Positions 2,885 through 25,133 of a stretch of 64,000 bases of DNA are shown here, piece after piece. The notes beneath the pieces are model-generated. The model saw nothing but the letters and a program-made list of their open reading frames with translations. It searched no databases and was not told the origin of the DNA. Position 1 is the stretch's first letter, and each line of letters opens with the position of its first letter. Position numbers and translations under genes: made by a program. The DNA comes from a phage: the sequence record PZ171032.1. The stretch is one strand, 5' to 3'.

Positions 2885-3265
2885 CTAAAATGCAGTCCGA
2901 ATCCAGACAAGGTTCTTATCTGCCCAATCATAGAGGCAAGTCATTGCACTATTGAATTGCTCACACGGAGGATAATCTTCTTCCATCTGGCGCATAGCAG
3001 AGCCTTGTGGGTAAAGCTCCCGTGCTGCAAACCACGCGTCGTAGTCATCAACGGTGTCGAAGTAGTATACAACATCCTCTAACTCAGGATCGAACTTTGA
3101 ACTATCAGGATCCAGTTGTTCAGGGAACTTGGAGCGTAACTTGCCAGCTACAATACTTGCCAACTCGCTAACATGCTTATTGTCCCACTCCACTAGCTTC
3201 CCGTCTTCAGTGATGCGTCCTAACCACTGATCATGAAGGTCAACTGTTGTCTTCCACTGGGCCAT
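2885..3265 (-). CDS. hypothetical protein
   Basis: 126-aa ORF in same operon; acidic. Confidence 0.5.
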   Translation of the reverse strand: MAQWKTTVDLHDQWLGRITEDGKLVEWDNKHVSELASIVAGKLRSKFPEQLDPDSSKFDPELEDVVYYFDTVDDYDAWFAARELYPQGSAMRQMEEDYPPCEQFNSAMTCLYDWADKNLVWIRTAF

Positions 3266-5138: not shown

Positions 5139-5151
5139 CACGTTTTTGATG

Positions 5152-5180
5152 TTGACATCTGTTGAGACAATTGATACGAT
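5152..5180 (+). promoter_or_regulatory. sigma70-like promoter, rightward (TTGACA-17 bp-TACGAT)
   Basis: Consensus -35 TTGACA at 5152-5157, 17-bp spacer, -10 TACGAT at 5175-5180. Lies inside the 5' extension of ORF 5146..6189, so the gene more likely starts at 5212. Confidence 0.55.
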
Positions 5181-5211
5181 TTCTTCACTTACAGAGCACG
5201 AGAGACGACTC

Positions 5212-6189: not shown

Positions 6190-6201
6190 TGACAGGGGCC
6201 A

Positions 6202-7683
6202 ATGGCCCCTTCTGGAGTTTTAATGGATAGCAGAAGTTCAGAAATCATTGCCTCGCAGAAAGATGATGCCCTGAGAATGTTGCAGGCTGCACGTATGTAT
6301 CTCCTTGAAAAGCTGCCGTTTTATGGCACACTACTGTCAGGGTTGCAGTTCGTAGAAAACCACACATGGTGCTCCACCATGGCAACCGACCATAAACGCA
6401 TCTATTACAGTCCTGAGTTCATTATGGGATTGGCTGATGAGCGCAAGGCTATTCTTAAGGCTTCTCTAACTGACGAGCAGTTTGAGATGGCTGAAGTTTT
6501 CTATTCCCCAAAATCTGTGAAAGAGGTGGCCTTCCTTCTGTCACATGAGGTGGGGCATATTATCTGTGATCATCTAGTCCGTGGTAAAAGCTTTGAGCCG
6601 GAACTGTTCAATATTGCTTGTGATCACGTTATCAACACAGGCCTTGTGGTTGACTTTAGCAAACCTCCTTGTGTTTTCTTCCCGAAGGGGAAAAGCACTA
6701 CGTTCATGAAAGGTAAGCCTTTTGGCTTCTTAGCCAGCTGCTACTGTGACATGAGGTTTCATGGATGGATTGCTGAGAACGTTTATGCAGTTCTTGATAA
6801 GCAAAGAGATCAGAATAACGGTAAAAGTAAGAACGGTAAAGGTGAGAACTCTCAAAGTGATAAGCGACAAACCGATGATCACATGAGTGGGAACGGTGGC
6901 ACCAGTGATAATCTTGGAAAGGCTATGGGGTATGATCAGCCACAACCTGTAATCAGCCAATCTGATAAAGATCAGGCCATGCAGGACTCTGGTGATATGC
7001 TGGAGGCAGCAATGCAAGCTTCCGGAGGTCGTTGCCCTGAGGCGGTGCGTGAGTTTGTCAAGAACAGGGGTAAGCCTGTAATCAACTATATAGACATCAT
7101 TAAGCAACGCATGTTGTCTAAACGAAAGGCTGAACTGACCTACAGAAAACCTGGTCGCCGATCTGGGTCTTTGACCAGCACAATGCGAAAAGTTGGGGCT
7201 ATAAACAAGAACCAGCACGTTATTGTTCCCGGTCGTAATCCGGAAAACACCATAGATATTGTTGTAGCTTTAGACGTTTCTGGCTCGATCTCTCAAAGAA
7301 CTTTAAAGAAAATGTTCAATGAAATCACCGGATTGTGCAATCTGTATAAAGAGTTTAAGGTTACAATGTTCTGTTGGTCAACTGAGGTTGGAGAGGTTAA
7401 AGTATACACTCGCGGTAACATAGATGAGATGATCAACTATGAGGTCCACTCAACATGGGGCACAACAGCTGCTTGCGTGTTCGAGTATCTAGATGCCAAC
7501 ATACCAAATGCAAAAGATGTCATCGTATTGACCGACCTATACTTTGAGCATAACTTTGAACAAAAGGCTGTTGACAACAAGTGGAAAAAGTACGATACTT
7601 TATGGGTTCTCACCGAAGGGTATAATAAAAATTATATCCCTAGCTTTGGGAAAACTGTGGAATTAATCGAGTACGCTAAGTAA
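6202..7683 (+). CDS. VWA-domain protein with N-terminal HExxH metallopeptidase-like domain (DUF2201-like)
   Basis: 493 aa; HEVGHIICDH zinc-peptidase-like motif near N-terminus; C-terminal IDIVVALDVSGSIS (DxSxS MIDAS motif of von Willebrand A domains). Confidence 0.65.
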   Translation: MAPSGVLMDSRSSEIIASQKDDALRMLQAARMYLLEKLPFYGTLLSGLQFVENHTWCSTMATDHKRIYYSPEFIMGLADERKAILKASLTDEQFEMAEVFYSPKSVKEVAFLLSHEVGHIICDHLVRGKSFEPELFNIACDHVINTGLVVDFSKPPCVFFPKGKSTTFMKGKPFGFLASCYCDMRFHGWIAENVYAVLDKQRDQNNGKSKNGKGENSQSDKRQTDDHMSGNGGTSDNLGKAMGYDQPQPVISQSDKDQAMQDSGDMLEAAMQASGGRCPEAVREFVKNRGKPVINYIDIIKQRMLSKRKAELTYRKPGRRSGSLTSTMRKVGAINKNQHVIVPGRNPENTIDIVVALDVSGSISQRTLKKMFNEITGLCNLYKEFKVTMFCWSTEVGEVKVYTRGNIDEMINYEVHSTWGTTAACVFEYLDANIPNAKDVIVLTDLYFEHNFEQKAVDNKWKKYDTLWVLTEGYNKNYIPSFGKTVELIEYAK

Positions 7684-7698
7684 GAGAGGAGGTTATTT

Positions 7699-7962
7699 AT
7701 GGCAACAGAGTTAAAATTTGCATCAAACCGTAAAACTAAGAAGTATCTGTCCTCAGTAGCTCCAGGCACTGTGGTGATGTTTGTTGATGAACTTGGGGAT
7801 GTGAATACAGCACTTGTTGTAAAATCACATCCTGCAAACATATATGTTGGGGTATTTGACCTGTTCAGAAAGGTGTTTGTAGAACTGCCTCACAGTTTGG
7901 TTGTTACAGAAATGGATGCCTGCATAGAAATTCTTGGCGAAGTTATGGTGGAGGAACAATAA
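7699..7962 (+). CDS. small protein, tandem paralog family member 1 of 4
   Basis: 87 aa; strong GAGGAGG RBS; shares K..GTVV...ILGE pattern with next genes. Confidence 0.6.
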   Translation: MATELKFASNRKTKKYLSSVAPGTVVMFVDELGDVNTALVVKSHPANIYVGVFDLFRKVFVELPHSLVVTEMDACIEILGEVMVEEQ

Positions 7963-8225
7963 TGGCTACCAGCATTGTATTCAATTCTAAGGTGAAGAAC
8001 AAAAAGCGTGCAGACAGTTTTCCGTGTGGGACCGTGGTAAGTTGCGACGGAGACGGCATTCAAAACATAGTTATGATTGTCAAAACAGGAGAACATTGTG
8101 TGTGGGGGTTCGATTTAGAAAATAATGAGTTGTACGATCTGCCGCCAAACATGAAAGTTACAGAGCTTGACACCAAAATTACCATCCTTGGAGAGACAAG
8201 CTATTCAAAAGAAGGAGGAGAATAA
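7962..8225 (+). CDS. small protein, tandem paralog family member 2 of 4
   Basis: 87 aa; ATGA start/stop overlap with member 1; GGAGG RBS; conserved CGTVV and ITILGE motifs. Confidence 0.6.
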   Translation: MATSIVFNSKVKNKKRADSFPCGTVVSCDGDGIQNIVMIVKTGEHCVWGFDLENNELYDLPPNMKVTELDTKITILGETSYSKEGGE

Positions 8226-8488
8226 TGACCACAAAAATCACTATCGCAGAACCGAAAGCTAACACTCAGCCTATCGAAAAGTTTAAGTGCGGTGAGGTGG
8301 TAACATTCACACCAGATAATGAAGATGCTAAGATTTTCGCAATGGTCACAGCTGAGTGGATGTGTGACAACACCACACAGGTTCTGCGTTTTGACACCTA
8401 TCTTACCGATGAAATCAGGAACGACAAGATTGTGACTGGTGTGGATACTGAGATTGTTTTCTACAAGAGCTTTTTAGAGGGTTTCTGA
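8225..8488 (+). CDS. small protein, tandem paralog family member 3 of 4
   Basis: 87 aa; ATGA overlap; AAGGAGG RBS; KCGEVVTF motif. Confidence 0.55.
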   Translation: MTTKITIAEPKANTQPIEKFKCGEVVTFTPDNEDAKIFAMVTAEWMCDNTTQVLRFDTYLTDEIRNDKIVTGVDTEIVFYKSFLEGF

Positions 8489-8489
8489 T

Positions 8490-8723
8490 ATGGCAAAAAT
8501 TAGAAAATTATCTAGCAATCAGGTTGTGAAAGACTTCGAATCTGGAGAGATTCTTTATGTTCGTGATGCAGATGACGAAGGTGAAGATCTCGTTATGTTG
8601 GTGGGGCACGCTGAGGACGGATGCATCCAAGCTGTTTTTCTTGAAACAGCTATGGTGCACTGGATAGAGCTGGACCTGAAAGCACGAAAACCTAAAGCAG
8701 AAATCCTGATTTACGAAGATTAA
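8490..8723 (+). CDS. small protein, tandem paralog family member 4 of 4 (divergent)
   Basis: 77 aa; GAGGG RBS; same size class, weaker similarity. Confidence 0.5.
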   Translation: MAKIRKLSSNQVVKDFESGEILYVRDADDEGEDLVMLVGHAEDGCIQAVFLETAMVHWIELDLKARKPKAEILIYED

Positions 8724-8739
8724 CAAAAAGGAGATAGCC

Positions 8740-9189
8740 GTGTTGAGCAAACGTGAATGCGACAGCATTAGCCTGAATTCTTATAAGAAACAATGGTTTG
8801 GGGTGGAAGTTTGCCGACTGCGGCTAGGCTCCTACCTGAACTTCGTTTATTATGAGAGTGACAGTCGTATCGTTTCTTATGAAGTGTTCTACACTAAGAA
8901 CACATTCGAACTGCGCCGTAAAGTAGATGGCGGGAGAACTACCCCCCAGAATAATTGGGAAACTATTCTGCCTCCAGATGTTATAGGAAGTCCCCTGAAT
9001 GTATCTGAAGATGAAAATCTTATGGTTCATGCTATGATGGGACTTGACAGCTTAGAGCTGGCAATCTATGATATGTCCATCGAAGCAGTTAAGCTGGACT
9101 ACATCGAAAACACTTTAGAGGAAGGTATCAAGAAGTTTCTCAGTGAGAAATTAAAAGACCACTTTCATAAGGAGCTATATCTGTTATGA
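8740..9189 (+). CDS. hypothetical protein
   Basis: 149 aa; GTG start preceded by AAGGAG. Confidence 0.5.
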   Translation: MLSKRECDSISLNSYKKQWFGVEVCRLRLGSYLNFVYYESDSRIVSYEVFYTKNTFELRRKVDGGRTTPQNNWETILPPDVIGSPLNVSEDENLMVHAMMGLDSLELAIYDMSIEAVKLDYIENTLEEGIKKFLSEKLKDHFHKELYLL

Positions 9190-9431
9190 AGACCCGTAAA
9201 GAACGTAACAAAATTTTACCTGGAGCTCTCGAACACCTGATGAAGTGCAGATCTATTTGGCACTCTGCCAAGGAAGGGCAGAAGGTGGTTGTGGTTAGTG
9301 ACAATACCAACCCGTTTGGAGATTATACCACCATGATGGCCCCATATGTCCGTGATGGCGTTGTAGAAGTGGTCCCTTACAACGGTTTGCATGAACGGCA
9401 CTTTGAAAGCACTTTGCTAGTGGAGCTATAG
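9186..9431 (+). CDS. hypothetical protein
   Basis: 81 aa; start overlaps upstream stop. Confidence 0.45.
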   Translation: MKTRKERNKILPGALEHLMKCRSIWHSAKEGQKVVVVSDNTNPFGDYTTMMAPYVRDGVVEVVPYNGLHERHFESTLLVEL

Positions 9432-9433
9432 TC

Positions 9434-10000
9434 ATGGCGGTCAATGTGGCTTACAACACAGGAAAGCTTGACAGAGACATTGGGTGTCTTGTCCTTTCAG
9501 ATACAGAAGAGTATTGGGGTTATGGGTTGCTGTCAGACCCACACCCGAGCAACCTTGTATCAACAGTGCTATACCGCTACGACCCTGTGCCAACGGTACA
9601 CGACAAAGACATTCACGACCTTCGGATCAAGTGTCTGGAAGATCTGCTGAACAATGGTTGCAACGATCTGCGGGTAGCCAAGGAGAAGCTTACAAACATT
9701 CACAAAGAGGAAGTGATGAGTACCCTCAGTAAAAGATCAGTGCACAAAAAGATGATGCTGAACTTTGCAATGGGTATCTACATGGATGGGTATAAGGGAG
9801 GGGATCCGATCCTCAAGCTTCGCTGCCCGACACTGTGGGAAAGAGTGGTTGACAGTAAGGACGGTACTGCCCTGCTCGAACTCCACACTGCAGGTTGGAT
9901 TTGGCGGTATGTAGACGGATACCCTCTGTGGGCATGTGGACCTGGGGAATTTGTTGACAGACCTAGCGCGGTGGTGGACTTACTATTGCAGTTTGAATAA
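9434..10000 (+). CDS. hypothetical protein
   Basis: 188-aa ORF; the two overlapping plus ORFs in other frames (9444..9650, 9484..9732) are treated as spurious. Confidence 0.5.
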   Translation: MAVNVAYNTGKLDRDIGCLVLSDTEEYWGYGLLSDPHPSNLVSTVLYRYDPVPTVHDKDIHDLRIKCLEDLLNNGCNDLRVAKEKLTNIHKEEVMSTLSKRSVHKKMMLNFAMGIYMDGYKGGDPILKLRCPTLWERVVDSKDGTALLELHTAGWIWRYVDGYPLWACGPGEFVDRPSAVVDLLLQFE

Positions 10001-10057
10001 AAAGGTGAGTTATAAGGTATTCATACACCTACCAACAATACAACAGGAGAGACTAAG

Positions 10058-10333
10058 ATGACGAAAGAAGAGGCCGACGTATTAGATTTTGCACTAGAGG
10101 CTACGCAGGAGGCTTTGGTGTTAGCTTGGAAAATGAACCAGCGTGCTGCAGAATGCAACCGCCGCATCAATGAGATCTTGGGCATGTCTATGTATGATTT
10201 CACCATGCATGCCGGAGAGATTCCTGAATTAACTGCCGAGATGAATGATCTTGACGATAAAATTAATATCATTCTGAAGACAGCAGAAACAACTCACCAA
10301 ACCGCCCGTAAATTTATCAACGAGAAGGTGTGA
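10058..10333 (+). CDS. hypothetical coiled-coil protein
   Basis: 91 aa; CAGGAGAG RBS. Confidence 0.5.
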   Translation: MTKEEADVLDFALEATQEALVLAWKMNQRAAECNRRINEILGMSMYDFTMHAGEIPELTAEMNDLDDKINIILKTAETTHQTARKFINEKV

Positions 10334-10800
10334 ATATGGACTACAGCTACTGCGGGGAAGAAGTCCCTTTTAATTACAGCAATCTTACCACGAGCAATCC
10401 ATATGAGACTCGCCACGGCACGCACATCATTGCCATCGACTTTGATGGAACGTTTAATGCGAGCCCTTTCATCTTCTCCCGCCTGATCAGGGATCTGAAG
10501 AAGGAGGGGTGGACAGTCTACCTTGTGACTTTCCGATTCATTACTCAAGACAATGTAGACATTGAGTATTGGCGCAAGGAGCTCGATGTTGGTGTGTTCT
10601 ACACAGGTGGTGTTCAGAAGGCAGCCTACCTGGCGCAGTTTGATATCTACCCAGATATCTGGATTGATGATTCTCCGGCATGTATTCCGGCTAAGAATCA
10701 GTTAGAGTTTGCAATGAAGGAGATTGAGTATAAGTCTGAGGCTAAGCGGAACGGATGGCCCTTTATTATTGAAGATTACCCAGATCCTGAACCGGAGTAA
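10330..10800 (+). CDS. HAD-superfamily hydrolase (putative nucleotidase/phosphatase)
   Basis: 156 aa; motif I IIAIDFDGT (hhhhDxDGT), LVTFR (motif II-like), WIDDSP (acidic motif IV-like). Confidence 0.5.
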   Translation: MNMDYSYCGEEVPFNYSNLTTSNPYETRHGTHIIAIDFDGTFNASPFIFSRLIRDLKKEGWTVYLVTFRFITQDNVDIEYWRKELDVGVFYTGGVQKAAYLAQFDIYPDIWIDDSPACIPAKNQLEFAMKEIEYKSEAKRNGWPFIIEDYPDPEPE

Positions 10801-10805
10801 GAGCC

Positions 10806-10976
10806 ATGAGGCGAAGATATCATTACCTGATGTGGAAGTTATATCAAAATGCTGCCAAAGCCTATCATACCATGTTTGGCAATGACGATCACTACATCAT
10901 GTTACATCTCACCGCTATTGAGCATCACAATGAGTGGATTCATGCAATCGTGGCAGGTGATAAAGACTTTAAGTAA
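10806..10976 (+). CDS. small hypothetical protein (56 aa)
   Basis: Hand-found ORF below track threshold; GGAG ~9 nt upstream of ATG; fills intergenic gap. Confidence 0.3.
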   Translation: MRRRYHYLMWKLYQNAAKAYHTMFGNDDHYIMLHLTAIEHHNEWIHAIVAGDKDFK

Positions 10977-11026
10977 AGTATACCTCAAAAACGTATAGTG
11001 CGGCTTTCTAGACGGAGACTGATTAA

Positions 11027-11407
11027 ATGTGCAAGTGTAAATCCTATAATTGGAAAGTGAAAGGTGCCAATCATCCAAATGTTATCGTTGATGTGCCTAA
11101 AAATCTTCGTGACGGCAAAAAACGTGTGTGCCTTGATAAGTGTATGGCTAAGCCTATCATGAGTTTGTGGGCAGCAGGTTTGAAAACGCTAAACTGCTGC
11201 TGTGGTCATAACAAAGATATTCCAAGCATCATTATCCCAGAAGATGCAGATCCTAAAGCTTATGCCAAAATACTGACCCGCTATCCCAGCACCTTCCTGA
11301 TCGGAAAATGGTGTCACGATGAACTCCAATGGTGGATAGCCTATGGTAGTATAGGCACTACTTTTGGCTTCCCAGCTTTGTCAGAGCGCTATGTCAAAGT
11401 GTCATAA
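11027..11407 (+). CDS. hypothetical cysteine-rich protein
   Basis: 126 aa; CKCK, CLDKC, CCCGH cysteine clusters; GGAG RBS. Confidence 0.5.
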   Translation: MCKCKSYNWKVKGANHPNVIVDVPKNLRDGKKRVCLDKCMAKPIMSLWAAGLKTLNCCCGHNKDIPSIIIPEDADPKAYAKILTRYPSTFLIGKWCHDELQWWIAYGSIGTTFGFPALSERYVKVS

Positions 11408-11416
11408 TAGAATTTA

Positions 11417-11434
11417 AGGCCTCAAACGAGGCCT
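11417..11434 (+). terminator. hairpin AGGCCTC-AAAC-GAGGCCT (possible weak terminator)
   Basis: Perfect 7-bp stem right after stop of 11027..11407; only a weak U tract follows. Confidence 0.35.
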
Positions 11435-11511
11435 GTGCCTTCATAAATTTCCCCACCCTGTGCGATTGCCTTCCTGAATAAAATACCCTCTCAGATCTCT
11501 TAAAATTAAGC

Positions 11512-11540
11512 TTGACACCACCACCAGATCTATATATAAT
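11512..11540 (+). promoter_or_regulatory. consensus sigma70 promoter (TTGACA-17 bp-TATAAT)
   Basis: Exact -35 TTGACA at 11512-11517, 17-bp spacer, exact -10 TATAAT at 11535-11540; about 33 nt upstream of ATG 11573. Confidence 0.6.
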
Positions 11541-11572
11541 TCTCACCAACCAACCAAACAGAGGAGATCGTC

Positions 11573-11980
11573 ATGGATAATCTTGCAGATGTAAATGTCG
11601 AAATTGTTAAACTAAAGTTCTTGGGCTTTCGGGACCCTTATTCTTTAACAGCCATACTAATGGATACTCACTTCACACCAGGTAAAGAGTACACTGCCTT
11701 CCGTTATATTTGCGGAGATCACGAATCAGCTTACAGTGTGAATACAAACCTCGGCGAGGGATATTTCATCAGAGATATCACAGATCACTTGTGGGGCATG
11801 TGGGAGTTGGTGGAGGAAGAGAATAAATCCCTTCCTAAAGAGATTTGGGTGCACACCTTCCACACAGGTAAGTTTGGAGGTACGGAACATAAGTCTATCC
11901 ACTATGATGAAGAAAGTGCCATCAAACAACAAGCTGTGCTTGGTGGATCTATAGAAAAATTTGTTAAATGCGAGGACTGA
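11573..11980 (+). CDS. hypothetical protein
   Basis: 135 aa; GAGGAG RBS. Confidence 0.5.
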   Translation: MDNLADVNVEIVKLKFLGFRDPYSLTAILMDTHFTPGKEYTAFRYICGDHESAYSVNTNLGEGYFIRDITDHLWGMWELVEEENKSLPKEIWVHTFHTGKFGGTEHKSIHYDEESAIKQQAVLGGSIEKFVKCED

Positions 11981-11983
11981 GAA

Positions 11984-12184
11984 ATGGCTGATTTTTGTAA
12001 AGATTGCTCTGAAGAGTTGTTTGGCTTTGACTGCAAAGATTTGGAAGGTCTGATCACTGAGGATCAGTGGAAGGAAGGCTATGCAGCACCTGTTATTTGT
12101 GAAGGTTGTGGCTATACCTATGTTGACCATAAAGGTAAGCGCGTCAAGCCGTCTGAAGATGGGGCATGTTGGGAGTATTACTAA
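11984..12184 (+). CDS. small zinc-ribbon-like protein
   Basis: 66 aa; CKDC...CEGCG cysteine pairs. Confidence 0.45.
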   Translation: MADFCKDCSEELFGFDCKDLEGLITEDQWKEGYAAPVICEGCGYTYVDHKGKRVKPSEDGACWEYY

Positions 12185-12190
12185 CTATAA

Positions 12191-12218
12191 AAAGAAAGGG
12201 GCCGTTTGGCCCCTTTTT
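12191..12218. terminator. bidirectional rho-independent terminator between convergent blocks
   Basis: GGGGCC-GTTT-GGCCCC hairpin (12198-12213) flanked by A-run upstream and T-run downstream; sits between plus gene ending 12184 and minus gene ending 12232. Confidence 0.7.
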
Positions 12219-12231
12219 ATTTACCCCCTTG

Positions 12232-15200
12232 TTAACGAGAAAAGGTTGCGTAGGCTTCTAGACGATACTGCTGGTCACCAGGGAACATAACACCTATAGA
12301 GGCTGTCCCTAGAATCCTGCCTTCCTTTCCAGACTCCATTCTGAACCCTACCCATCCTGAACTCCTTGCAGCCTCGATGTTGTCGCTATACCCGAAAGTG
12401 GCAAGATCGTCAACACCAGCCCCAAACAGCAACTGAAGCTGACTTCTCGGAAGCCCTATAATTTCAGGAATATACGCACCAAAGTACACCATCTGCCCTA
12501 CCTTAGGACCGCTGCCGTACTCCATCGGTTTGCTTGTAGAGAAAGTCTTCATACCAGAAGTACCTGCCGGATTAGGGTATGCCCCGTTTGTTGCTGTACC
12601 TATCCACATTCTCCACTGTGGTGCCATCTGTTTGACAGTAAAAGATGTTGAAGACGTTTTGCGCCCTGCATCATCTGTAACTACAAACTTTATGGTGACA
12701 TTCCCAGTAGCTTTAAATGTTACCAGTCCTGTGGTGGCATCCACTGTTGCAATGTTGGTATTACTACTTTCCCAAGTCTTTCTAATCCCGGATACGTTGG
12801 AAGGGGTAATAGAAGGTTCCTGCATCTGCAGTTTACCGCCCACAATCCCTATGCCGTTGCCAGGATTATACAGTGCACCAACCTCGTCTATAATGTTCCC
12901 TGCTTTGAGACTATACTTCCTTGAGAAATTGTAGGTTCCGTTATAAGTGTGTGTCCCTGAGAAGGTGACATCTGCCTTCCCGTAAGAGATGCAAACCAAC
13001 GCATACTTCCTGTCAGGCAACGTTTCTCCAGTCTCTGGGTGAGTTTTACCTACCTGGAACACACTCGGGTCAGTAGAGTCGTGACTATCACTAACGGAGC
13101 TTGGACCGCCCATCAACTGTGACAAACAATTCCTTACCCATGTCCAGTTATTATCGCTGGAGAAGTCCACAGTCAAATCAAACACAACCCACTCATTTGG
13201 CTTCCACACAGGTGTTGTAATGGACTTGCCTACACCACCTCCTTGGAGTGTTGCCGACTGTTCAGTGATCAGGGCCGCATAGGCCAGAGTTCCTAAACTC
13301 AGAGTCTGGCTTGCTGTCCTCACTACCTTAGAATCAGCATCTGTGAAGTTGTTGATGATTTGGAATGTGCCATAAGTGTTTTTACAGGTAATTCTGGCGT
13401 TCAGTGTGTCAATCTTCCTCACATCTGCCATAGCAGTGTTAGACACAGAGAAGTCAGAAGCTTTAGCTGAGTTTGCCGCAACAGCAGGATCAACGTTAAG
13501 AGTTGCGTTGAACTGACAAGCAGGAGTAACCAGTAGCTTGTTATCACCTATTTGCTTCCATGAAACACTTTGAACAGGGAGATTCCATTTAATACCTGAG
13601 AAAACCTTAGCAACCCTTGGCCCCAAAGCTCCAGTCCTGTTGTCTTTACAGCACATAGACATGGTGATCGTTGACGGAGTGGCCTGACCAAATAATTGCT
13701 GTGCTTTTGCAGAGGACATAGTGTAGAAATTGTCCTTAACAAACTCATCAGCAGCTAAAGATCCATCAGCTCTCCACCACTGAACCTGATACCCTGTTTT
13801 GTCCCAACCACCGACCTGCTTCAAGTCCTCCCAGGAGATTTCCAGATCCCCGGTGGTAGGATTGATTGCAGCAGTTCCTGGTGTTCCAGATGACCATATT
13901 GGAATATCGAACCACGCTGGTTTAACCGACTGCACTGCGCTGGGACCTATTGCGGCAGCAAGTTGCTGGCCCATCAATACGCGAGCATCTTTCACCAGAC
14001 CCCACTCAATCATAGACCCAGAGTAACCTTCTTTCTTGTAGGCTGAGGATCCGTTCAAATGGATGAGTCGGCTTGTGCCAAAGTTATGTGCTCCACCACC
14101 GTTGTCGTCTGCAAAATTGGTTATGATTCTGTCCCTGATATTTTTCCATGCCCTGCCTCCAATCTCGTAGTCATGGTCATAACATCTTTGCAGTGTTGTC
14201 CAGCAAATGATCGCCATCCTTCTACCATTGCTGAAGCCAAAGGCCTGATCGTTAAGCTCTCTCCACAAGTAGCAGTTGGTGGTCCACATGGCCCTATGAA
14301 TGTTAAACCAGTTTATAGATTTGGCTGAGTTGTTCCACTGAGTCCCAGGTAATTCAGGCCATACTGCATTAACCAGCATGTCTTCTGTTCCTGCATCAAC
14401 CAGGAACCCTCTCACCTTCTTACCCATGCCTACCCTATCTTTTGCAATCCAACTGCCAAACAATCTCAGTTTTGGACCGTAGACAACATCTTCCGGATGC
14501 TCAAAAGAAATATATTTTAGGTATATTGTAGGGTCACCATAGGTGCCATCACAAACAGCTTTGTGCATGTTCTCACCAAGGTCTAGACGAAGTCCTGTTA
14601 CAACTCTAGACGTGTCGGTGAATTTGTCTGTTAAATCAAACTCATACCACCACCAACCTGCACCCAACAATACTTTCTTACAACGCTGTGCATCTGTATC
14701 AGATATTCTCTTATCGCCTGCAAAAGGTGAGTCAGCAAACTGATAGTGCAGAGCAACCTCAAAAGGATGTGTGGATGTCCCGTTTTCTGCAAGAACTTGT
14801 TTACCTATCAGGTCGCACTTAATGATCATCACAACACGTTTGTATCCGTTTGTTACCGGAATTTGCATGGACATGGATGTCCCATCCATGTTTGATCTCA
14901 GTGCAGTCATGATGATATAAGGGTCAACGGCATTGCCCAAAGTCTCAGGACCGGGGATTATCTTATACTTCTTGACCTGCCCCATGATGTAGTCACTTGC
15001 GTAAGTTGCCTCATTCAAGCAAGATCCTCCACCAGGTAACTCACCAGGTCCCCAGAAAAATGCGCCGTAACAGTTGTAGAACCACTTGTTAGGATCGTAT
15101 TTATTCTTGAAGGTCTGAACCTCGTTGGCCTGTTTTGTCAAGAAAACCTGCGTGTCTGTGAAGATTGCAGGGTTTACTCTCGCCTGTCTTGGAGGGTAAC

Positions 15201-17868
15201 CTGTAGTTTGGTTAAACCACAAATTACAAGAGTAATCCCTCATATAGTCATAATCAGAGTATTTGTTTACATCTTCGTTCCAACACATGTTTAGGTTGGT
15301 ACCGCCCATGCATACAATATATTCTGCGACATACTTATCACTTCTGGTAGGAATACCTATGAACCATCTGTTAACAGGCTCATCCCAAGCTGTGCGCTCA
15401 TCTTTAACGCAGATAGCAATCCAGTCATGTGTTCCTGTTTTCTTGCACACATCTCGCTTCATACCATAGTAGAACTCTTTAGTATTCGGCTCAGGTGCAT
15501 TTATCAGGTAACTCCATGCCTGATTTGCATAAGTTCCATTGGTGCGTGGATCATGATCAAAGGCATACATGATGATCCTTTCCCCACCAAGATGTTCGCC
15601 AAGAGTAACTTTGACATTCACATCGCCGTAACCATTGCGAACAACATCCATATTGTCAATAGAGATGCCTCTGGGAGTGTAGGCAATCTTCAGCGAGTTA
15701 TCCTCACTAGTGCCACCAAGTGTAATCCCTATGTTGTTTGTTGTCCCGTCGGCATATCTTACTGTGGCTTCCCAGCGTATTCCGAAATATCCTGCATCAT
15801 GGCTAACAATTTTCAGTGTACGAGCACCAGAGTTAGGTTTTCCAGGATCAGGCCAAGGATTTGGATGTTCATGGACAGTCAACGATGTCCCGTTTTGCTC
15901 GTTGACCTGCAACATTTTACCGCCTCTGCCGTTAGGGTTGAACTCCCACAAGGCTTGTGTTTTCACAATATTGTCATACGTGGTACGTCTCTGATCGTAG
16001 ATCTCCTGAGTCACATCGTAGGTTACAGACCCGGCATCCATTCTATGGAGTCGTACTATATACGATGTATCGCCTTCTACAGCAGGTTGAGCTGCGTTAA
16101 GCCCGAAGTATACAGTATCGTTGACATGGAACTGTTTGTTTCTACCGACAGTATGCCACTTGCCGTTGGACGGGTACGCTGGGACGATAGTGTTCCAGTT
16201 CAAAGTCCTTGTTGTGTGGGTTCTGCCTGTGCCATGTTTGTCATGATAGGTTATTTTTACAGAGTACAGTCCACGTCTGTTAACATTTCTGTTATATTGG
16301 GTAACAACAACTTCGTTGGCCCCGCCGTGGTTCCAGTTGGTGGAGAATTGGTAATTTGCATCTGTAACAACCGTGCCTGCAGCATTTACCAGTTCAATCT
16401 TGTCAATAATGAACGTAGCCCCCTCTGGCTGAGGCTTCAATTTCATCTTGACCGTGTCACCAATGTAAATATTGCTAACGCTGCTAACACCGTTAACTTC
16501 GAAAATATAATCAACACCCCAACTGTCTACTGGGACATTTTTATACCAATTCTCAGGAACCTCTGTGAACCCCTGGCTATTAAGTCTGCCGCCAAACAGG
16601 TTGTTAGATCCTGCAAAACTTCCCCTTGGGATGCCTGACCACCAAAGTTTACCATTAACAACAGTAAAGGTTCCTAAGAAACCTTCTCTGTGGATGCCTT
16701 GGAAATAAACACTCTCTGTCCAGCTAACTGGCAGGCGTTGCTCAACATATTTAGCTGTAGCAAGAGCTTGATAGTGGATAAAATTAGCCCTAGGGCTATT
16801 GTTTGCAGATTGTGCACCAATATCATTACACAAGTTGCGAGAGAATCCACGATACTGTTTAGTGCCATTATTGAAGAAAATGCCACTTGTGCCATATCCA
16901 CGAGCCATTATCACCTCATGGGTGTAGGTGATATTTAAGGAACGCCATGTGTCATCTCCCCAGACGTCTTGCCCGTAGAATACGTTAACAAGCTGCTGGT
17001 CATTGGGTTTGTGCATCCTCTGTGTGGCAATTATTGCCCCGTTAGGGCCACACATAAACCCTTTCCACTCCTCATCTGCAGGAATGCCCCTCAAATCGTT
17101 ACGAGTAATCTGCACAGGGGGCCAAACAAGGTCGTTTCTACTGTTATTTCTCAGAAAGTCGTATCCAGCAATCCAGAAACCCCTAGGACCACCGAAAATA
17201 ACAGAGTTGTCATGCACCTCACAGTTGATGCTTGGGTTTTTCCAAGGGCCTGTTTCAGGATTTTCCGATGTCTCACCAATCTTTACAGGGGTTGCATGCT
17301 GATTTTTATCTACATGCAAAGATCCGTAGGTGTTGTTACCAGATCCATACAGGTTAAGTATGCCAGTACCTTCTGCCTCTGCAATAACCCAGACAGTGTT
17401 GTTAATACCGCCCATCACCTCAATAAGGCGTTCTGGGTGGGTGTCAAGGTGCAATCCTTTAACAATCTGCTCTGGGAGTGGTGTCCACTCGTTTACGCAA
17501 ACATCATTACCGCCTGCCGCAGTGGATCCGATAAGACCTGCAGTGCAGCCGATGTAGAAAAACTGGTTATCAAAAGTCCGGATCACAAACGCGCGGTCTG
17601 CTCTCCACACATGATCAACATTCCAGGCTGTTTCGCTCGGATAGTTTATAGGGCTACGATCCCCAGTGCGGCACTCTCCGAACTTGTTATAGCCAGTAAT
17701 ATTAAGCTGACCATCATCAAAAAGTATAGCTAAGCTATTTACATAGGATACTGTGTTGCTTGTACCATCACTGTTGTCTATTGGGTATGACAGAACAGCA
17801 AGTTCCTTAATTCCACCCCTCTTATCGAGGAAATGACGACCAAGTTTTAGCAAAGGGATTGGAAGCAT
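12232..17868 (-). CDS. giant virion protein (1878 aa), putative tail fibre/tailspike with C-terminal Ig-like (Big_2-like) domain
   Basis: Uninterrupted 5.6-kb ORF at distal end of tail-fibre cluster; C-terminal segment ATVDATTGLVTFKATGNVTIKFVVTD resembles bacterial Ig-like group 2 domains; function not resolved. Confidence 0.55.
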   Translation of the reverse strand: MLPIPLLKLGRHFLDKRGGIKELAVLSYPIDNSDGTSNTVSYVNSLAILFDDGQLNITGYNKFGECRTGDRSPINYPSETAWNVDHVWRADRAFVIRTFDNQFFYIGCTAGLIGSTAAGGNDVCVNEWTPLPEQIVKGLHLDTHPERLIEVMGGINNTVWVIAEAEGTGILNLYGSGNNTYGSLHVDKNQHATPVKIGETSENPETGPWKNPSINCEVHDNSVIFGGPRGFWIAGYDFLRNNSRNDLVWPPVQITRNDLRGIPADEEWKGFMCGPNGAIIATQRMHKPNDQQLVNVFYGQDVWGDDTWRSLNITYTHEVIMARGYGTSGIFFNNGTKQYRGFSRNLCNDIGAQSANNSPRANFIHYQALATAKYVEQRLPVSWTESVYFQGIHREGFLGTFTVVNGKLWWSGIPRGSFAGSNNLFGGRLNSQGFTEVPENWYKNVPVDSWGVDYIFEVNGVSSVSNIYIGDTVKMKLKPQPEGATFIIDKIELVNAAGTVVTDANYQFSTNWNHGGANEVVVTQYNRNVNRRGLYSVKITYHDKHGTGRTHTTRTLNWNTIVPAYPSNGKWHTVGRNKQFHVNDTVYFGLNAAQPAVEGDTSYIVRLHRMDAGSVTYDVTQEIYDQRRTTYDNIVKTQALWEFNPNGRGGKMLQVNEQNGTSLTVHEHPNPWPDPGKPNSGARTLKIVSHDAGYFGIRWEATVRYADGTTNNIGITLGGTSEDNSLKIAYTPRGISIDNMDVVRNGYGDVNVKVTLGEHLGGERIIMYAFDHDPRTNGTYANQAWSYLINAPEPNTKEFYYGMKRDVCKKTGTHDWIAICVKDERTAWDEPVNRWFIGIPTRSDKYVAEYIVCMGGTNLNMCWNEDVNKYSDYDYMRDYSCNLWFNQTTGYPPRQARVNPAIFTDTQVFLTKQANEVQTFKNKYDPNKWFYNCYGAFFWGPGELPGGGSCLNEATYASDYIMGQVKKYKIIPGPETLGNAVDPYIIMTALRSNMDGTSMSMQIPVTNGYKRVVMIIKCDLIGKQVLAENGTSTHPFEVALHYQFADSPFAGDKRISDTDAQRCKKVLLGAGWWWYEFDLTDKFTDTSRVVTGLRLDLGENMHKAVCDGTYGDPTIYLKYISFEHPEDVVYGPKLRLFGSWIAKDRVGMGKKVRGFLVDAGTEDMLVNAVWPELPGTQWNNSAKSINWFNIHRAMWTTNCYLWRELNDQAFGFSNGRRMAIICWTTLQRCYDHDYEIGGRAWKNIRDRIITNFADDNGGGAHNFGTSRLIHLNGSSAYKKEGYSGSMIEWGLVKDARVLMGQQLAAAIGPSAVQSVKPAWFDIPIWSSGTPGTAAINPTTGDLEISWEDLKQVGGWDKTGYQVQWWRADGSLAADEFVKDNFYTMSSAKAQQLFGQATPSTITMSMCCKDNRTGALGPRVAKVFSGIKWNLPVQSVSWKQIGDNKLLVTPACQFNATLNVDPAVAANSAKASDFSVSNTAMADVRKIDTLNARITCKNTYGTFQIINNFTDADSKVVRTASQTLSLGTLAYAALITEQSATLQGGGVGKSITTPVWKPNEWVVFDLTVDFSSDNNWTWVRNCLSQLMGGPSSVSDSHDSTDPSVFQVGKTHPETGETLPDRKYALVCISYGKADVTFSGTHTYNGTYNFSRKYSLKAGNIIDEVGALYNPGNGIGIVGGKLQMQEPSITPSNVSGIRKTWESSNTNIATVDATTGLVTFKATGNVTIKFVVTDDAGRKTSSTSFTVKQMAPQWRMWIGTATNGAYPNPAGTSGMKTFSTSKPMEYGSGPKVGQMVYFGAYIPEIIGLPRSQLQLLFGAGVDDLATFGYSDNIEAARSSGWVGFRMESGKEGRILGTASIGVMFPGDQQYRLEAYATFSR

Positions 17869-17885
17869 TGTGTTCTCCAGATAAG

Positions 17886-17910
17886 AAAACCGCCCCGTCA
17901 GGAGCGGTTA
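17886..17910 (-). terminator. possible terminator hairpin (AACCGC...GCGGTT + U-rich)
   Basis: Hairpin then UUUUCUUAU on minus strand between genes 17917..19662 and 12232..17868. Confidence 0.35.
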
Positions 17911-17916
17911 GATATA

Positions 17917-19662
17917 TTAACGTTGTGCAATTACTACGTCTACAATATCACCAACACCACAATATGTTAATTGCAGCAGGGTAACACTGTTAGCCTTGTT
18001 GTTAATAACAGGTGTTGCCGACAGGATAGCATACTTATCGTGCAAAGTCACGTTGTGACCTACAGCATCCTGAATGACATAGATAACTGCAGTGAATGGA
18101 TAAGGTTTATCTTCCGCTGATGTCCCAGGCCACTGCCCTATTGTAAAATCCCCTTTAGCGTGGACAACATACATACTGGCCTGCCCGTTAGGTGTCCATG
18201 TCCCACTAGATGCGTCAACCTCCTCTAAGTCAAAGTCTACTTTTCCTGCATGGAAAGAAGGGGCGGTGATAGTTTTACCTGCCTCGATCTCTTGTGAGGT
18301 GGTTATCTTGCCACTAGAGTTGATACCATTACAGACAAAGTTAACATTAGAGAAATCTGGCAACCACCCTGTCACTGTGCCAGAAATCTCAAGGTTATGC
18401 AGGCGTGTTGTTCCTGTGCCGTTGTCATTTAAGCTAACATCACCATTTACCTGCAAGTTTCTGGTAACGTTGCAGTTTTCAGAGTTTGCAGTTGTTGCAG
18501 TTAAAGTGGTTGTTGTCAGCTCGGTAATTATGCCTTTGTTGGCTGTAAGACCTTCCCCTTCAAAAGTTGCACGCTCATTGACTCTCAGGGTATTCAGAGC
18601 TATGTTTTGGATAGAGGCTGTACCTCGAATAACTACAGACCCGCCAACCTCTAAATCGCCATTTACCAATGCATCGCCCGTGCTTTCAATGTAGCTAGGG
18701 TAGATCATGGTGCCATCGACAGAGTAGGTTATCCCTGTAACGGTGCCTGTCACCTCAAGGTTCTTAACCCTAGCGGTCCCATCGACCTGCAATGTCGGTT
18801 CGGTTGCTGCCTTCATGGCATTGCCACGAATGTACACGTAGTCAAAAAAGTTATTACCCAGACCATCAAAATGCACATCGTTATTATTAGCCACTGGTTT
18901 CCCAGAAGTTATAGTGTCAGCTATAATCCTGTGGGTGGACACTTCATGAGGTTGCAGCTCTGTGCTTCTCCAGTCTGCATGCTTAGGATCGCTCCACGCA
19001 AAAGTAAGTGTAGAAGTATTTGCCGTGAGGATCAGGTTCCTGAAGCGTGCATTGGAATCTGCTCCATTAACAGGCCCATGTAAGGTAAGTGTGCCCCCAA
19101 CTATGGTGTTGGCAAGTTCTGTAAGACCTTTTACCACCAAAGACCCTACAGTAACTTTCATCCCCTCCATGGCTTTAAATATACTATCTACATAGTCAAC
19201 AACAAACTCTGTGTTTGCTATAGACTCAGACTTATCGTCCATTGGAGGAGTAGGTACTCGCGGGTCACCTTCGAACCTTGGGCTGTTAAGTTTTGCGTAG
19301 TATTTTGCCATTACTGCAGAGTCGGTGTATAATCTCCAGTTTGGAGATTGTGAAGGATCTGCTGGCATTCTAACCGGGTTAGATTTTGATGCTGCGGGAG
19401 CGTACCACCACTGAGGGCCTGTGTCCCCTTTAAACTCATACAACTGGTTAAAAACTGTTGTGGATGCACCATACGCCCAAGGGATTGGTGGCGTTTTAAA
19501 ATAAAGGGTGTCAAGCATGGCTTTTCGTACCGTAGGGATAGTGGTCCCATCCTCTACGACAACTTCATCCACAGCGTTACCGTTGACAATCAAGTGCAAA
19601 CGTTCAGAATCAACAATTACTTGATCTACCGCCTGCTCGAAGCTTGTCATGTCTTGCGCCAT
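17917..19662 (-). CDS. tail fibre / tailspike-like protein
   Basis: 581 aa; Gly/Thr/Asn-rich beta-structure-like repeats; position in fibre cluster. Confidence 0.5.
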   Translation of the reverse strand: MAQDMTSFEQAVDQVIVDSERLHLIVNGNAVDEVVVEDGTTIPTVRKAMLDTLYFKTPPIPWAYGASTTVFNQLYEFKGDTGPQWWYAPAASKSNPVRMPADPSQSPNWRLYTDSAVMAKYYAKLNSPRFEGDPRVPTPPMDDKSESIANTEFVVDYVDSIFKAMEGMKVTVGSLVVKGLTELANTIVGGTLTLHGPVNGADSNARFRNLILTANTSTLTFAWSDPKHADWRSTELQPHEVSTHRIIADTITSGKPVANNNDVHFDGLGNNFFDYVYIRGNAMKAATEPTLQVDGTARVKNLEVTGTVTGITYSVDGTMIYPSYIESTGDALVNGDLEVGGSVVIRGTASIQNIALNTLRVNERATFEGEGLTANKGIITELTTTTLTATTANSENCNVTRNLQVNGDVSLNDNGTGTTRLHNLEISGTVTGWLPDFSNVNFVCNGINSSGKITTSQEIEAGKTITAPSFHAGKVDFDLEEVDASSGTWTPNGQASMYVVHAKGDFTIGQWPGTSAEDKPYPFTAVIYVIQDAVGHNVTLHDKYAILSATPVINNKANSVTLLQLTYCGVGDIVDVVIAQR

Positions 19663-23060: not shown

Positions 23061-25133
23061 TTATGAGAAGTCTGGCGGGACAACATCTTCTACATACCCT
23101 TTCAGAGCAACCTGCCCCATATGAAGCACGGTAGAATCTCTAGCGGTAACAGTGATGCTGTCAGACATTACTTGCGGGTATGCCCACACATACTGTTTTA
23201 CCTCAGGGTATCTATACTCTATAGTTGCCATGTTTCCGCAAATACATCTCCATAAAAATTCTTGGTAATTCCTAGTTGGGTCGTAGCCATATACCGGAGC
23301 AAGCTCTTTACTAGGAACGAACCCTGCAAGGTATTGTATTTCAGACGGTTGCCAACCTAACTTAACGATAGGTATGTTTACAGACTCTTTTGCCTTTTCA
23401 ATACCTCCCTGCATCACCCAATCGTAGCACTCAGTGCAGAAGAAATCAAGAGCACCTGCTTCCTTTTTATATTGGTCAGCAAGGTTCAGCTTTTGCGTAA
23501 GCTCGGTTTCCATAATGGTTGGGAAAAACAGCAAAGCTGTCATCTGAGCTGATGCAGCGTGTGCTTTTATTGCCTTTGAAATAGCCGCAATACGAGCGCC
23601 AAGCTTACCACGACAAAATGCTACATACTTGTCGTAAACACCGCCAGTTTTAGGATCGTCAATAGTCCCAATATCTAATGCATACTCGCCTGTCTCATCA
23701 TAAAACGCCTGTTTTGTAGGGTAATCATAAATACAAGGTCTACGAGTATCGGTATTGTACCACCACCACGGTTCACCAACCTGCATAATCACTGGCAGGT
23801 TGTTTCTCATAGCGGCTGATGCAAAATTCTTAAATACTGCAGTAAGGAAATTCATACCCTCTTCAATGGTTGGAGACAGGAGGTAGCTACAAGGTGTATA
23901 CCCTGTTTTAGCGTAGTTATCGTTCCAGTCTCTTTGGGTCCATTCCAACGGGCAGGCGTCGCTGAAAAGCTCAAAACTTACAGATTGCATAACGTCGAAG
24001 TTATGTCGTTTGGCATTGTACATAAAATCATCATGCCATTTATAAGCTGCAGCGTTTAGCGCTCCTGTTCTGTTTATAGACCATTGGGTTCCTGACCATG
24101 TGTAGTCATAATAATGACTCATACCAACATAATGGTTTATGGTTCCGGTATAGCCCAGACGCTTGATATTGTTCAACACCCTTAAAGGAGACACGTTCCA
24201 CATATCGTCATATGCGGTGCAGATCCCAACATCGTGCTCTTTAACCTGAATATTGTTAAGTTGCATCATTTTCCAGCCTGTGTCTGGCTGGAGCAGATCT
24301 AGGCGCAACTCACACTCTACATTTTCCGTTCTCGGGTCTGTGCTATTACTTACCCAGTCTTTAGGCATGAGCGGTATTAAAATCCTTCTCACCTGCCGAG
24401 GATCAACACCCATCATGTTGTTGTTCTGGTCCATCCCGACGCAGTCCTCAAAATCAATATGAATTTCTGCAACATTCTTATCCTCTGAGATGCTGACAGC
24501 ATATTGAGCTAAAGGAACATAGATGATTGTGCCATCAACAAGGTCTACAGTCATAATCATCTTTTCAGGAGTGGAGAAGTTGCTGGCGTTGGTTATTGAC
24601 ATTCTGAACCAAAGCTTGGTGTTTCTCATCTCATAGTGATCATCAAACCCAATACCGAAATGGTCATACTTGTCAACTGTTTCCCAAATGCACCCAGCCA
24701 TACCCCCATATGTTCTTGACACTAAACGGTTAATACAACAGTTGTTATCTGCAACAATACAGGTACTTTCAGTCTGCTGAGTAGTTGTAACCCAATACCT
24801 TGGGTGAAACATTCTCTCCTCAACAGTATCCCAAGATATCCTGTCAAGATTCTCATCTGAAACTATTGTACATTTCGCCCTTTGTGTTCCAATCATCACC
24901 CCTTGAGATTTTGATGAAAACTCCATAAAGAAGCTTCTTGGCAACCTGTTGGGTAATTTGTCAACAATTTCCACAGGGATCTCAATACTGGTTGCCCCAA
25001 TTGGGATAGTTACATCGCCCTCAACATGATTATAATCCCTACCAGGAACGGCAGTATCCTGAACTGTTCGGTAATGAAACTGTGCAGCCATTGTAGAGTA
25101 ATCACGGTAAGGTTTAAAAACAGCTGTTGCCAT
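23061..25133 (-). CDS. tail-associated protein with N-terminal Calx-beta-like motif (possible enzymatic fibre)
   Basis: 690 aa; N-terminal VPGRDYNHVEGDVTIPIGATSIEIPVEIVDK resembles Calx-beta; Trp/Tyr-rich remainder suggests carbohydrate-active fold (speculative). Confidence 0.4.
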   Translation of the reverse strand: MATAVFKPYRDYSTMAAQFHYRTVQDTAVPGRDYNHVEGDVTIPIGATSIEIPVEIVDKLPNRLPRSFFMEFSSKSQGVMIGTQRAKCTIVSDENLDRISWDTVEERMFHPRYWVTTTQQTESTCIVADNNCCINRLVSRTYGGMAGCIWETVDKYDHFGIGFDDHYEMRNTKLWFRMSITNASNFSTPEKMIMTVDLVDGTIIYVPLAQYAVSISEDKNVAEIHIDFEDCVGMDQNNNMMGVDPRQVRRILIPLMPKDWVSNSTDPRTENVECELRLDLLQPDTGWKMMQLNNIQVKEHDVGICTAYDDMWNVSPLRVLNNIKRLGYTGTINHYVGMSHYYDYTWSGTQWSINRTGALNAAAYKWHDDFMYNAKRHNFDVMQSVSFELFSDACPLEWTQRDWNDNYAKTGYTPCSYLLSPTIEEGMNFLTAVFKNFASAAMRNNLPVIMQVGEPWWWYNTDTRRPCIYDYPTKQAFYDETGEYALDIGTIDDPKTGGVYDKYVAFCRGKLGARIAAISKAIKAHAASAQMTALLFFPTIMETELTQKLNLADQYKKEAGALDFFCTECYDWVMQGGIEKAKESVNIPIVKLGWQPSEIQYLAGFVPSKELAPVYGYDPTRNYQEFLWRCICGNMATIEYRYPEVKQYVWAYPQVMSDSITVTARDSTVLHMGQVALKGYVEDVVPPDFS

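Follow-up and report, generated by a model that had tools for sequence, protein, structure and literature searches.

The 64,000-nucleotide stretch of phage DNA analyzed here (PZ171032.1; "the window" refers to this whole stretch) carried on its minus strand, at 12232..17868, a gene for a giant protein of 1878 amino acids (aa). Our results suggested that this protein was a large accessory component of the virion: a thin, probably nontrimeric "beads-on-a-string" adhesin fiber, present at sub-stoichiometric levels and possibly docked on the fiber encoded immediately upstream. We put the probability of this reading at roughly 0.45. The original prediction, which was made from the DNA letters, had proposed a giant tailspike or depolymerase; that proposal went unsupported, as no such family or fold appeared in sequence and profile searches or in Foldseek.

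The gene consisted of a single ATG-to-stop frame of 1878 uninterrupted codons. The chance of an open reading frame (ORF) of this length in DNA of 44% G+C was (61/64)^1878, or about 1e-39, and a chance origin of the ORF was therefore excluded.
12232..17868, minus strand: complete ORF (1878 aa and a stop codon), the orthologue of rV5 gp27 (208 kDa), assigned to phrog_15684
17875..17878, minus strand: GGAG ribosome-binding site, 7 nt 5' of the ATG, read straight from the sequence

The source phage of the window is an rV5-like Vequintavirus. The gene was 99.7% identical in nucleotide sequence to that of Escherichia phage ECP2303 and about 97% identical to those of Murica and CarlMeissner. The protein shared 94% aa identity with rV5 gp27 (YP_002003529, "Ig-like domain-containing protein"; bas48_0041), an orthologue of the same length (1878 aa) and position, with the same neighbors and no material difference. 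The phrog_15684 profile spanned residues 1-1878 of 1878 (E = 0), which placed the protein in this orthologue group. Of the 121 phage records with the gene, 108 had a coverage of at least 80%. When the gene was compared with those of CarlMeissner and rV5, the ratio of nonsynonymous to synonymous substitution rates (dN/dS) was 0.03-0.11 in each of seven regions and 0.06-0.07 overall, and dS ranged from 0 to 1.56 along the gene, which indicated a recombination mosaic. This is one real gene under strong purifying selection throughout, and the single 5.6-kb ORF of the original prediction was thus borne out. Deposited labels varied ("hypothetical," "Ig-like domain-containing," "structural protein with Ig domain," and "lateral tail fiber protein with intimin domain"), and a search of the literature for the function, phenotype, or mutations of gp27 returned only annotation and no functional data. 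The gene is already catalogued, and its architecture is an unusual variant of the immunoglobulin (Ig)-decorated phage fiber proteins.

A homologue search of 5.8 billion clustered proteins yielded only 15 clusters, with lengths of 1711-1976 aa. Homologues P0003-P0015 came from uncultivated Vequintavirus-like contigs with the gene order seen in the window; they were 45-58% identical to the window protein over aa 1 to about 1430 and divergent beyond. Word-indexed searches for deeper alignments, with an N-terminal profile and with the C-terminal 289 aa, recovered fragments of the protein's own family only. Fifteen GenBank records of the MG0656xx series labeled "Campylobacter phage" (host C. jejuni) also carried the gene, at about 93% nucleotide identity; these are probably rV5-like coliphages that were mislabeled or co-isolated.

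The domain architecture of the giant protein is listed below. Structures were predicted with AlphaFold in two overlapping segments (aa 1-840 and 741-1878) from only 16-17 homologues, and the mean predicted local distance difference test scores (pLDDT) were 49.8 and 53.5; hence, only the beta-sandwich domains were usable. Segmental structure prediction, which had been proposed as a check, was in this way informative for the beta-sandwiches and unreliable for the propeller and the helices of the central module.
17848..17868, minus strand: N-terminal heptapeptide MLPIPLL, a motif common to positional orthologues
16534..17868, minus strand: RCC1-like module of about 445 aa, a putative beta-propeller and the best-conserved part of the family
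15349..16533, minus strand: about three domains, aa 446-840, from the AlphaFold model and Foldseek
13882..15348, minus strand: central orphan module, aa 841-1329 (about 490 aa), with no relatives outside the family among 1.84 billion proteins
14494..14973, minus strand: beta-sandwich or jelly-roll inserted in the central module, aa 966-1125 (pLDDT 70-85)
13573..13881, minus strand: FN3-like beta-sandwich, aa 1330-1432 (pLDDT 60-76; weak Pfam fn3 match)
12877..13572, minus strand: further beta-sandwich or Ig-like domains, aa 1433-1664 (aa 1530-1660 at pLDDT 75-90)
12589..12876, minus strand: Big_2 (intimin-like) Ig domain, aa 1665-1760 (Pfam match at aa 1682-1733)
12235..12588, minus strand: C-terminal domain, aa 1761-1878, an allelic hot spot within Vequintavirus

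The N-terminal module was 70-86% identical to that of relatives averaging about 50% identity over the whole protein. In tblastn searches, aa 1-197 matched the final tail-cluster gene of Phapecoctavirus (Mt1B1_P17 gp118, 890 aa) at 41% identity and that of Seunavirus (KE22, 609 aa) at 30% identity, and hhalign aligned aa 1-440 of the window protein with aa 1-407 of gp118 (probability 99.7%, E = 7e-26). Both gp118 and KE22 cleared the Pfam RCC1 cutoff (24.1 versus 21.7 bits for gp118), and aa 1-400 of gp118 matched phrog_4219, "regulator of chromosome condensation." The window protein itself scored only 21 bits (E = 2e-4) on PF25390, far under the cutoff of 150, and gave an E value of 0.077 on RCC1_2. 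In the AlphaFold model, aa 200-445 formed beta-strands at pLDDT 22-45, a confidence too low for a meaningful fold match to a seven-bladed propeller. We read aa 1-445 as RCC1-like because of the hhalign homology to gp118, which passes the RCC1 cutoff; this module is probably a propeller.

The chain that followed was rich in beta-sandwiches. Two were modeled at aa 452-565 and 737-840 (pLDDT 70-80), the middle domain (aa 586-735) was uncertain, and Foldseek aligned aa 446-840 with strings of three Ig or FN3 domains. Nearer the C terminus, Big_2 (PF02368) matched aa 1682-1733 (E = 4e-8, 33.5-35.6 bits versus a gathering cutoff of 22.8), as the original prediction of a Big_2-type Ig-like segment in this region had it, and weak intimin matches were found in PDB and NCBIfam. 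The prediction had also recognized no other motif. This was nearly true; the subthreshold RCC1-like match, the profile homology to gp118, and the FN3-like domain speak against it. An all-against-all hhalign comparison of 11 putative domain segments gave no pair with a probability of at least 20%, so recent tandem repetition does not account for the beta-sandwich domains. Foldseek searches of PDB and BFVD returned only tandem Ig domains, protocadherins and cadherins, S-layer arrays, and Ig-bearing phage proteins, with PVP-SE1 gp40 and Hoc-like proteins among the BFVD neighbors; for the propeller and the central module, no match was informative.

Strong divergence within the family began at about aa 1430. 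In comparisons with the AlexBoehm-type allele, the last approximately 130 aa (from about aa 1741), which exist as two alleles, were 52-77% identical, versus 83-100% (mostly at least 90%) in 60-aa bins over the rest of the protein. As for the central module, no Pfam or NCBIfam family and no PDB profile matched it in the six members scanned, and an exhaustive HMMER search of 1.84 billion representative proteins with a six-sequence profile gave two matches, both of them family members. The central module is a clean target for fold discovery because it has no relatives among these 1.84 billion proteins.

The genomic setting hinted at a possible partnership with the fiber gene upstream. The giant gene was the final member of a minus-strand tail and tail-fiber operon, which agrees with its earlier placement at the fiber cluster's distal end; the next genes (5146-12000) lay on the opposite strand. 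The features flanking the gene were as follows.
12195..12216, minus strand: strong terminator-like hairpin directly 3' of the stop codon; the rV5 annotation has it as a rho-independent terminator
17880..17909, minus strand: intrinsic-terminator-like hairpin plus T-run, between the stop codon of the upstream fiber gene and the giant ORF
17917..19662, minus strand: upstream fiber gene, 581 aa; rV5 gp28, phrog_4549, Pfam Phage_phiTE_241_N/C
17920-18255, minus strand: conserved C-terminal domain of this fiber, about 100 aa, the candidate docking partner of the giant protein

The intergenic hairpin (17880..17909) had 9 bp, 6 of them G-C pairs, a 4-nt loop, and a predicted energy of -16.7 kcal/mol. 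A GC-rich hairpin followed by a T-run occupied the same position in every paired lineage examined, that is, in Seunavirus, Phapecoctavirus, phi92, Certrevirus, and metagenomic relatives, and in six genera overall. The stems were mutually unrelated (AACCGCTCC/GGGGCGGTT, AGCCTCTCC/GGAGAGGCT, GAAGCCCC/GGGGCTTT, AAGGCTGTC/GACAGCCTT, and AGCCCC/GGGGCT), with energies of -14 to -18 kcal/mol. A hairpin that is kept in place despite its differing sequence suggests that the dosage of the giant protein is lowered. The final approximately 100 aa of the upstream fiber were 44-54% identical (E = 1e-22 to 1e-26) to those of phi92 gp151 and Phapecoctavirus gp119; only this C-terminal stretch was common to these upstream fibers, and the shafts were otherwise unrelated.

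The position of the last gene at the end of the tail-fiber cluster was conserved in six genera (that of the window and five others), and the positional orthologues elsewhere carried the base module alone or other distal modules. An N-terminal consensus, M-[LFY]-P-I-P-[LIC]-[LF], was common to positional orthologues in four genera: MLPIPLL in the window, MFPIPIF in Phapecoctavirus, MYPIPCF in Seunavirus, and MYPIPLF in phi92 gp152. The Certrevirus N termini were looser (MYPFAII or MIPFAII), and no other ORF in the window began with this heptapeptide consensus. In P0015, the called start, MENTMFPIPLL, overlapped the GGAGAACACAATG ribosome-binding region (contig 7001-7015) conserved with the window, and translation probably begins at the second ATG, which would give MFPIPLL. 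Two further candidate relationships were rejected. The idea that phi92 gp152 or gp153 is directly homologous to the N-terminal module failed because gp152, a 202-aa protein that consisted of the heptapeptide and two Big_2 domains without a propeller, aligned over its first 7 residues only. An N-terminal motif shared with short tail fibers (P-[IF]-P-L, in two window paralogues) was discarded because the short fibers of phi92 and Phapecoctavirus began differently.

The pair as a whole, namely, the fiber C-terminal domain, the hairpin, and a protein beginning M-x-P-[IF]-[PA], was present in Vequintavirus, Seunavirus, Phapecoctavirus, Justusliebigvirus, and Certrevirus. The predicted pairing was tested on outgroups having the fiber C-terminal domain. 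In Certrevirus, CR3 gp034 and DU_PP_IV p035 (about 420 aa, phrog_15692) occupied the same slot after a hairpin and were RCC1-like via phrog_4219. The Certrevirus link is transitive, since it rests on phrog_4219, gene position, and the N-terminal motif. As judged from these genomes, the pairing of the fiber with a downstream protein of this kind is frequent and not obligatory.

A virion role for the giant protein is plausible. In the supplementary mass-spectrometry table for rV5, gp27 was represented by 3 peptides and 9 spectra (3.1% coverage), and in the comparative table of the Septuagintavirus paper, both rV5 gp27 and the Seunavirus orthologue PVP-SE1 gp040 appear as virion proteins detected by mass spectrometry. 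In purified Septuagintavirus virions, W70_106 (phrog_15692, 44 kDa) gave 115 spectra and the adjoining fiber W70_107 (phrog_4549, 112 kDa) gave 996. Normalized by size, the ratio was about 0.3 to 1; one copy per fiber trimer would fit this ratio, which is only suggestive. Sodium dodecyl sulfate (SDS)-polyacrylamide gel electrophoresis of rV5 showed major virion bands at 288 and 174 kDa. Besides gp27 (208 kDa), rV5 encodes no protein above about 140 kDa, and these bands could be gp27 or SDS-resistant fiber trimers. Thin 70-nm fibers were occasionally seen in rV5 micrographs.

At least eight deposited genomes had frameshifted, nonsense, split-annotated, or partly deleted copies of the gene.
naswa: loss of 1 nt at nt 2284, leading to a stop at aa 788
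ime: loss of 2 nt at nt 3155, leading to a stop at aa 1056
Alma: loss of 1 nt at nt 624, leading to a stop at aa 239
phita32: nonsense codon at aa 1439
nomine: gene annotated as two coding sequences
YP-6: two features annotated under the gene; known from annotation only
V18: gene in four pieces and lacking about 1 kb
APECc02: three fragments, aa 440-1479 deleted

The original prediction was to be refuted by frameshifts or stops showing several genes in place of one. Lesions were indeed present in several relatives, but they were independent and at different sites, and the gene was intact in about 100 genomes; they are therefore a sign of dispensability and not of several genes. The giant gene appears to be dispensable in the laboratory. 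The broken copies, taken together with the purifying selection on intact copies, indicated that the gene matters in nature and not for plaque formation on laboratory hosts.

We weighed these data against other explanations for the giant protein. One is that it is a true receptor-destroying enzyme (a depolymerase, glycanase, or esterase) in which aa 841-1329 form a new catalytic fold, perhaps an alpha/alpha toroid into which a carbohydrate-binding beta-sandwich is inserted, and the Ig-like domains serve as spacers. The central module was 45-79% identical among family members, and many Trp, Cys, acidic, His, Arg, and Tyr positions were invariant (e.g., E1162-D1163, N1186-W-F-N-x-H1191-R, R1228-C-Y1230, and E1280...E1288). 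About 10 predicted helices (pLDDT 20-45) flanked the confident beta-sandwich. Neighboring fiber proteins in this phage group carry glycan-active domains, and in phi92 a SASA-like esterase, gp153, directly follows gp152. On the other hand, searches of Pfam, NCBIfam, PHROGs, and PDB profiles matched none of the six members to an enzyme family, the exhaustive HMMER search returned family members only, and APECc02 lacked the whole central module. Searches of Pfam (E values up to 5 on segments), PHROGs, NCBIfam, and PDB profiles detected no beta-helix, pectate lyase, glycosidase, esterase, or Peptidase_S74 chaperone, so that the remote-homology check proposed earlier for pectate-lyase or beta-helix folds came back empty. 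At the confidence of the helical model, the toroid is only a lead; likewise, an alpha/alpha-toroid lyase or hydrolase with a putative N-x-H-R...Y-like motif was kept as a lead only. The depolymerase idea may survive solely in the form of an orphan central module that is a new enzyme, and we consider the enzymatic explanation unlikely.

An explanation that we regard as similarly doubtful places the protein elsewhere on the virion (head, neck, or tail surface), or makes it a nonvirion late protein, with Hoc-like environmental or mucus adherence or a function unrelated to host recognition; the junction with the fiber gene would then be a recombination or regulatory linker. The C-terminal 290 aa matched phrog_215, which PHROGs assigns to head and packaging, and the BFVD neighbors included Hoc-like and Ig-bearing major tail or head proteins. 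The phi92 annotation names the N terminus of gp151 a potential capsid-binding domain, and a 2026 study of phi92 compares gp151 to a head spike. The weak mass-spectrometry evidence for rV5 gp27 and the dispensability of the gene fit this explanation as well. What argues for the tail is that the position at the end of the tail-fiber cluster was conserved in six genera, that the N-terminal module was common to phrog_11922, which PHROGs labels "tail protein," and that an allelic C-terminal tip is typical of receptor-contacting parts. Less likely still is a classical trimeric lateral tail fiber, as the BASEL label "lateral tail fiber protein with intimin domain" implies, that is, one of the three lateral fiber sets of phi92-type virions. 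The occasional 70-nm fibers of rV5 would suit it, but Pfam and PHROGs searches detected no trimerization module (coiled coil, triple beta-helix, or Peptidase_S74), and we found neither a collagen-like repeat nor a C-terminal chaperone. DSSP analysis of both AlphaFold models gave a longest helix of 25 residues and no long coiled coil. Moreover, phi92 has three fiber sets yet no full-length homologue, and the giant gene appears dispensable. RCC1-type propellers and Ig strings are usually monomeric.

Several observations weigh against the accessory adhesin that we favor. The three rV5 gp27 peptides were nontryptic or semitryptic with modest scores, and gp1 and gp228 stand at a comparably low level in the same rV5 list, which holds 19 proteins. 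The pLDDT of the propeller (22-45) and of the central-module helices (20-45) was low, so the negative results for enzymes and beta-helices rest mainly on sequence searches, and the central module's many invariant charged and aromatic residues would likewise suit a catalytic site. When the profiles of the N-terminal module and CR3 gp034 were compared directly, the match was not significant. In Mydovirus (Klebsiella phage DP), the fiber with this C-terminal domain was the last gene, and in Asteriusvirus (jumbo phage SP27), the gene after it was unrelated; in both, the domain lacked a downstream partner, and it therefore has a role independent of docking. Finally, some broken alleles could be sequencing or assembly errors, although this is unlikely for the 2-nt deletion, the nonsense substitution, and the kilobase deletions.

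An accessory adhesin arm could work as follows. The conserved N terminus (heptapeptide and RCC1-like module) would anchor the giant protein to the virion, and the likeliest anchor site would be the approximately 100-aa C-terminal domain of the upstream fiber, which would yield a branched fiber. The conserved intergenic terminator would cut the dosage of the giant protein relative to that fiber; we infer both the docking and the dosage control from co-conservation. The Ig-like chain would extend the variable domain at the C terminus, possibly along with the central module, toward surface glycans, and contact with glycans would raise reversible adsorption on natural hosts or in mucus. On laboratory strains, the fiber that binds the N4 glycan receptor (NGR) or enterobacterial common antigen (ECA), together with short fibers that bind the lipopolysaccharide core, would suffice, and loss of the gene in culture would go unpenalized. 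A bolder version, which we think improbable, is that the gene pair represents a previously undescribed branched-fiber scheme of the Vequintavirinae and Stephanstirmvirinae. A monomeric RCC1-like base would plug by its N-terminal peptide onto the C-terminal knob of a trimeric fiber, a leaky terminator would set the dosage, and the Vequintavirus adaptor would have grown into a 208-kDa arm, with its approximately 490-aa orphan module being a new fold that binds or cleaves glycans.

The rV5-like phages rank among the broad-host-range coliphages isolated most often, and cocktails for biocontrol and therapy make use of them. Cryo-electron microscopy (cryo-EM) studies of phi92 and phiTE each leave one fiber unassigned (phi92 fiber II and the third fiber of phiTE), and the gene-to-fiber assignment in the rV5-like group is stated to be unclear in the literature. 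If the giant protein is a dispensable, sub-stoichiometric accessory arm with a conserved anchor, this would guide the cryo-EM assignment of unresolved fiber densities, explain the decay of the gene in laboratory stocks, and mark a safe engineering site, the distal two-thirds of the protein being losable.

Other genes of the window and of its relatives deserve mention. At 23061-25133 on the minus strand, the window encoded a 690-aa fiber protein whose relatives carry Pfam NCTSP_N and TIM-barrel_NCTSP domains. It is the N4 gp65-like NGR/ECA-binding deacetylase fiber treated in BASEL and in a preprint of 2026, and on K-12 it probably serves as the primary receptor-binding protein. On the plus strand, three abutting 87-aa ORFs (7699-7962, 7962-8225, and 8225-8488) looked like tandem paralogues; they are hypothetical in CarlMeissner (bas48_0052-0054). 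In phi92, gp153 (17095-17982, the gene after gp152) had a WGQGEND-type motif, a weak match to SASA (sialate O-acetylesterase; Pfam E = 0.008), and an FN3-like tail, and it could be a putative esterase in the slot of the distal part of the giant protein. In a metagenomic Vequintavirus-like contig, a YadA_anchor (PF03895) protein was encoded at 14163-15008, just downstream of the giant gene; this domain is the anchor of bacterial trimeric autotransporters, here in a phage genome.

Among known proteins, the closest in kind are the positional orthologues. The Phapecoctavirus gp118-type "tail protein" (phrog_11922, 890 aa) is likewise the last gene of its fiber cluster and has the RCC1-like module, Big_2, the motif, and the fiber and hairpin upstream, but it ends in BspA-type leucine-rich or DUF285-like repeats, unlike the window protein. 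Seunavirus PVP-SE1 gp040 and KE22 (about 605 aa) are alike in position, motif, RCC1-like module, Big_2, and the upstream fiber and hairpin. The Certrevirus and Septuagintavirus phrog_15692 proteins (about 420 aa) share the position, motif, and RCC1-like module without Big_2, whereas phi92 gp152 (202 aa) shares the position, motif, and Big_2 without the RCC1-like module. The window protein is 2-9 times longer than these orthologues, and it alone has the 490-aa orphan module, the FN3-like domain, and a different C-terminal tip.

Large genes in "Swiss-army-knife" fiber clusters are generally expected to encode tailspike depolymerases. The beta-helix tailspike depolymerases (P22 gp9, the phi92 gp150 colanidase, and the gp143 endosialidase) have a similar genomic neighborhood, but in the window protein no beta-helix, catalytic family, or chaperone domain was detected. 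T4 Hoc and the C-terminal Big_2 domain of lambda gpV likewise expose Big_2/FN3-type domains, are dispensable in the laboratory, and are presumed to mediate weak glycan adhesion. By analogy with these proteins, whose domains may let phages adhere to mucus, the giant protein may adhere in a similar manner; it differs in being far larger, in having an RCC1-like base and an orphan module, and in being encoded in the tail-fiber cluster and not among head genes. Accessory proteins with Ig-like domains on phage particles were reportedly described by Fraser et al. in 2006. In branched receptor-binding complexes, one fiber or tailspike docks on another by an N-terminal adaptor (CBA120 TSP1-4, G7C gp63.1/gp66, and K1-5-type adaptors). 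The logic proposed here follows theirs, with a conserved anchor at the N terminus, distal modules that can be exchanged, and a partner encoded by the neighboring gene. The proteins of those complexes are trimeric beta-helix enzymes with known adaptor folds, whereas the putative anchor of the window protein is an RCC1-like module with a heptapeptide, and its docking is suggested by co-conservation.

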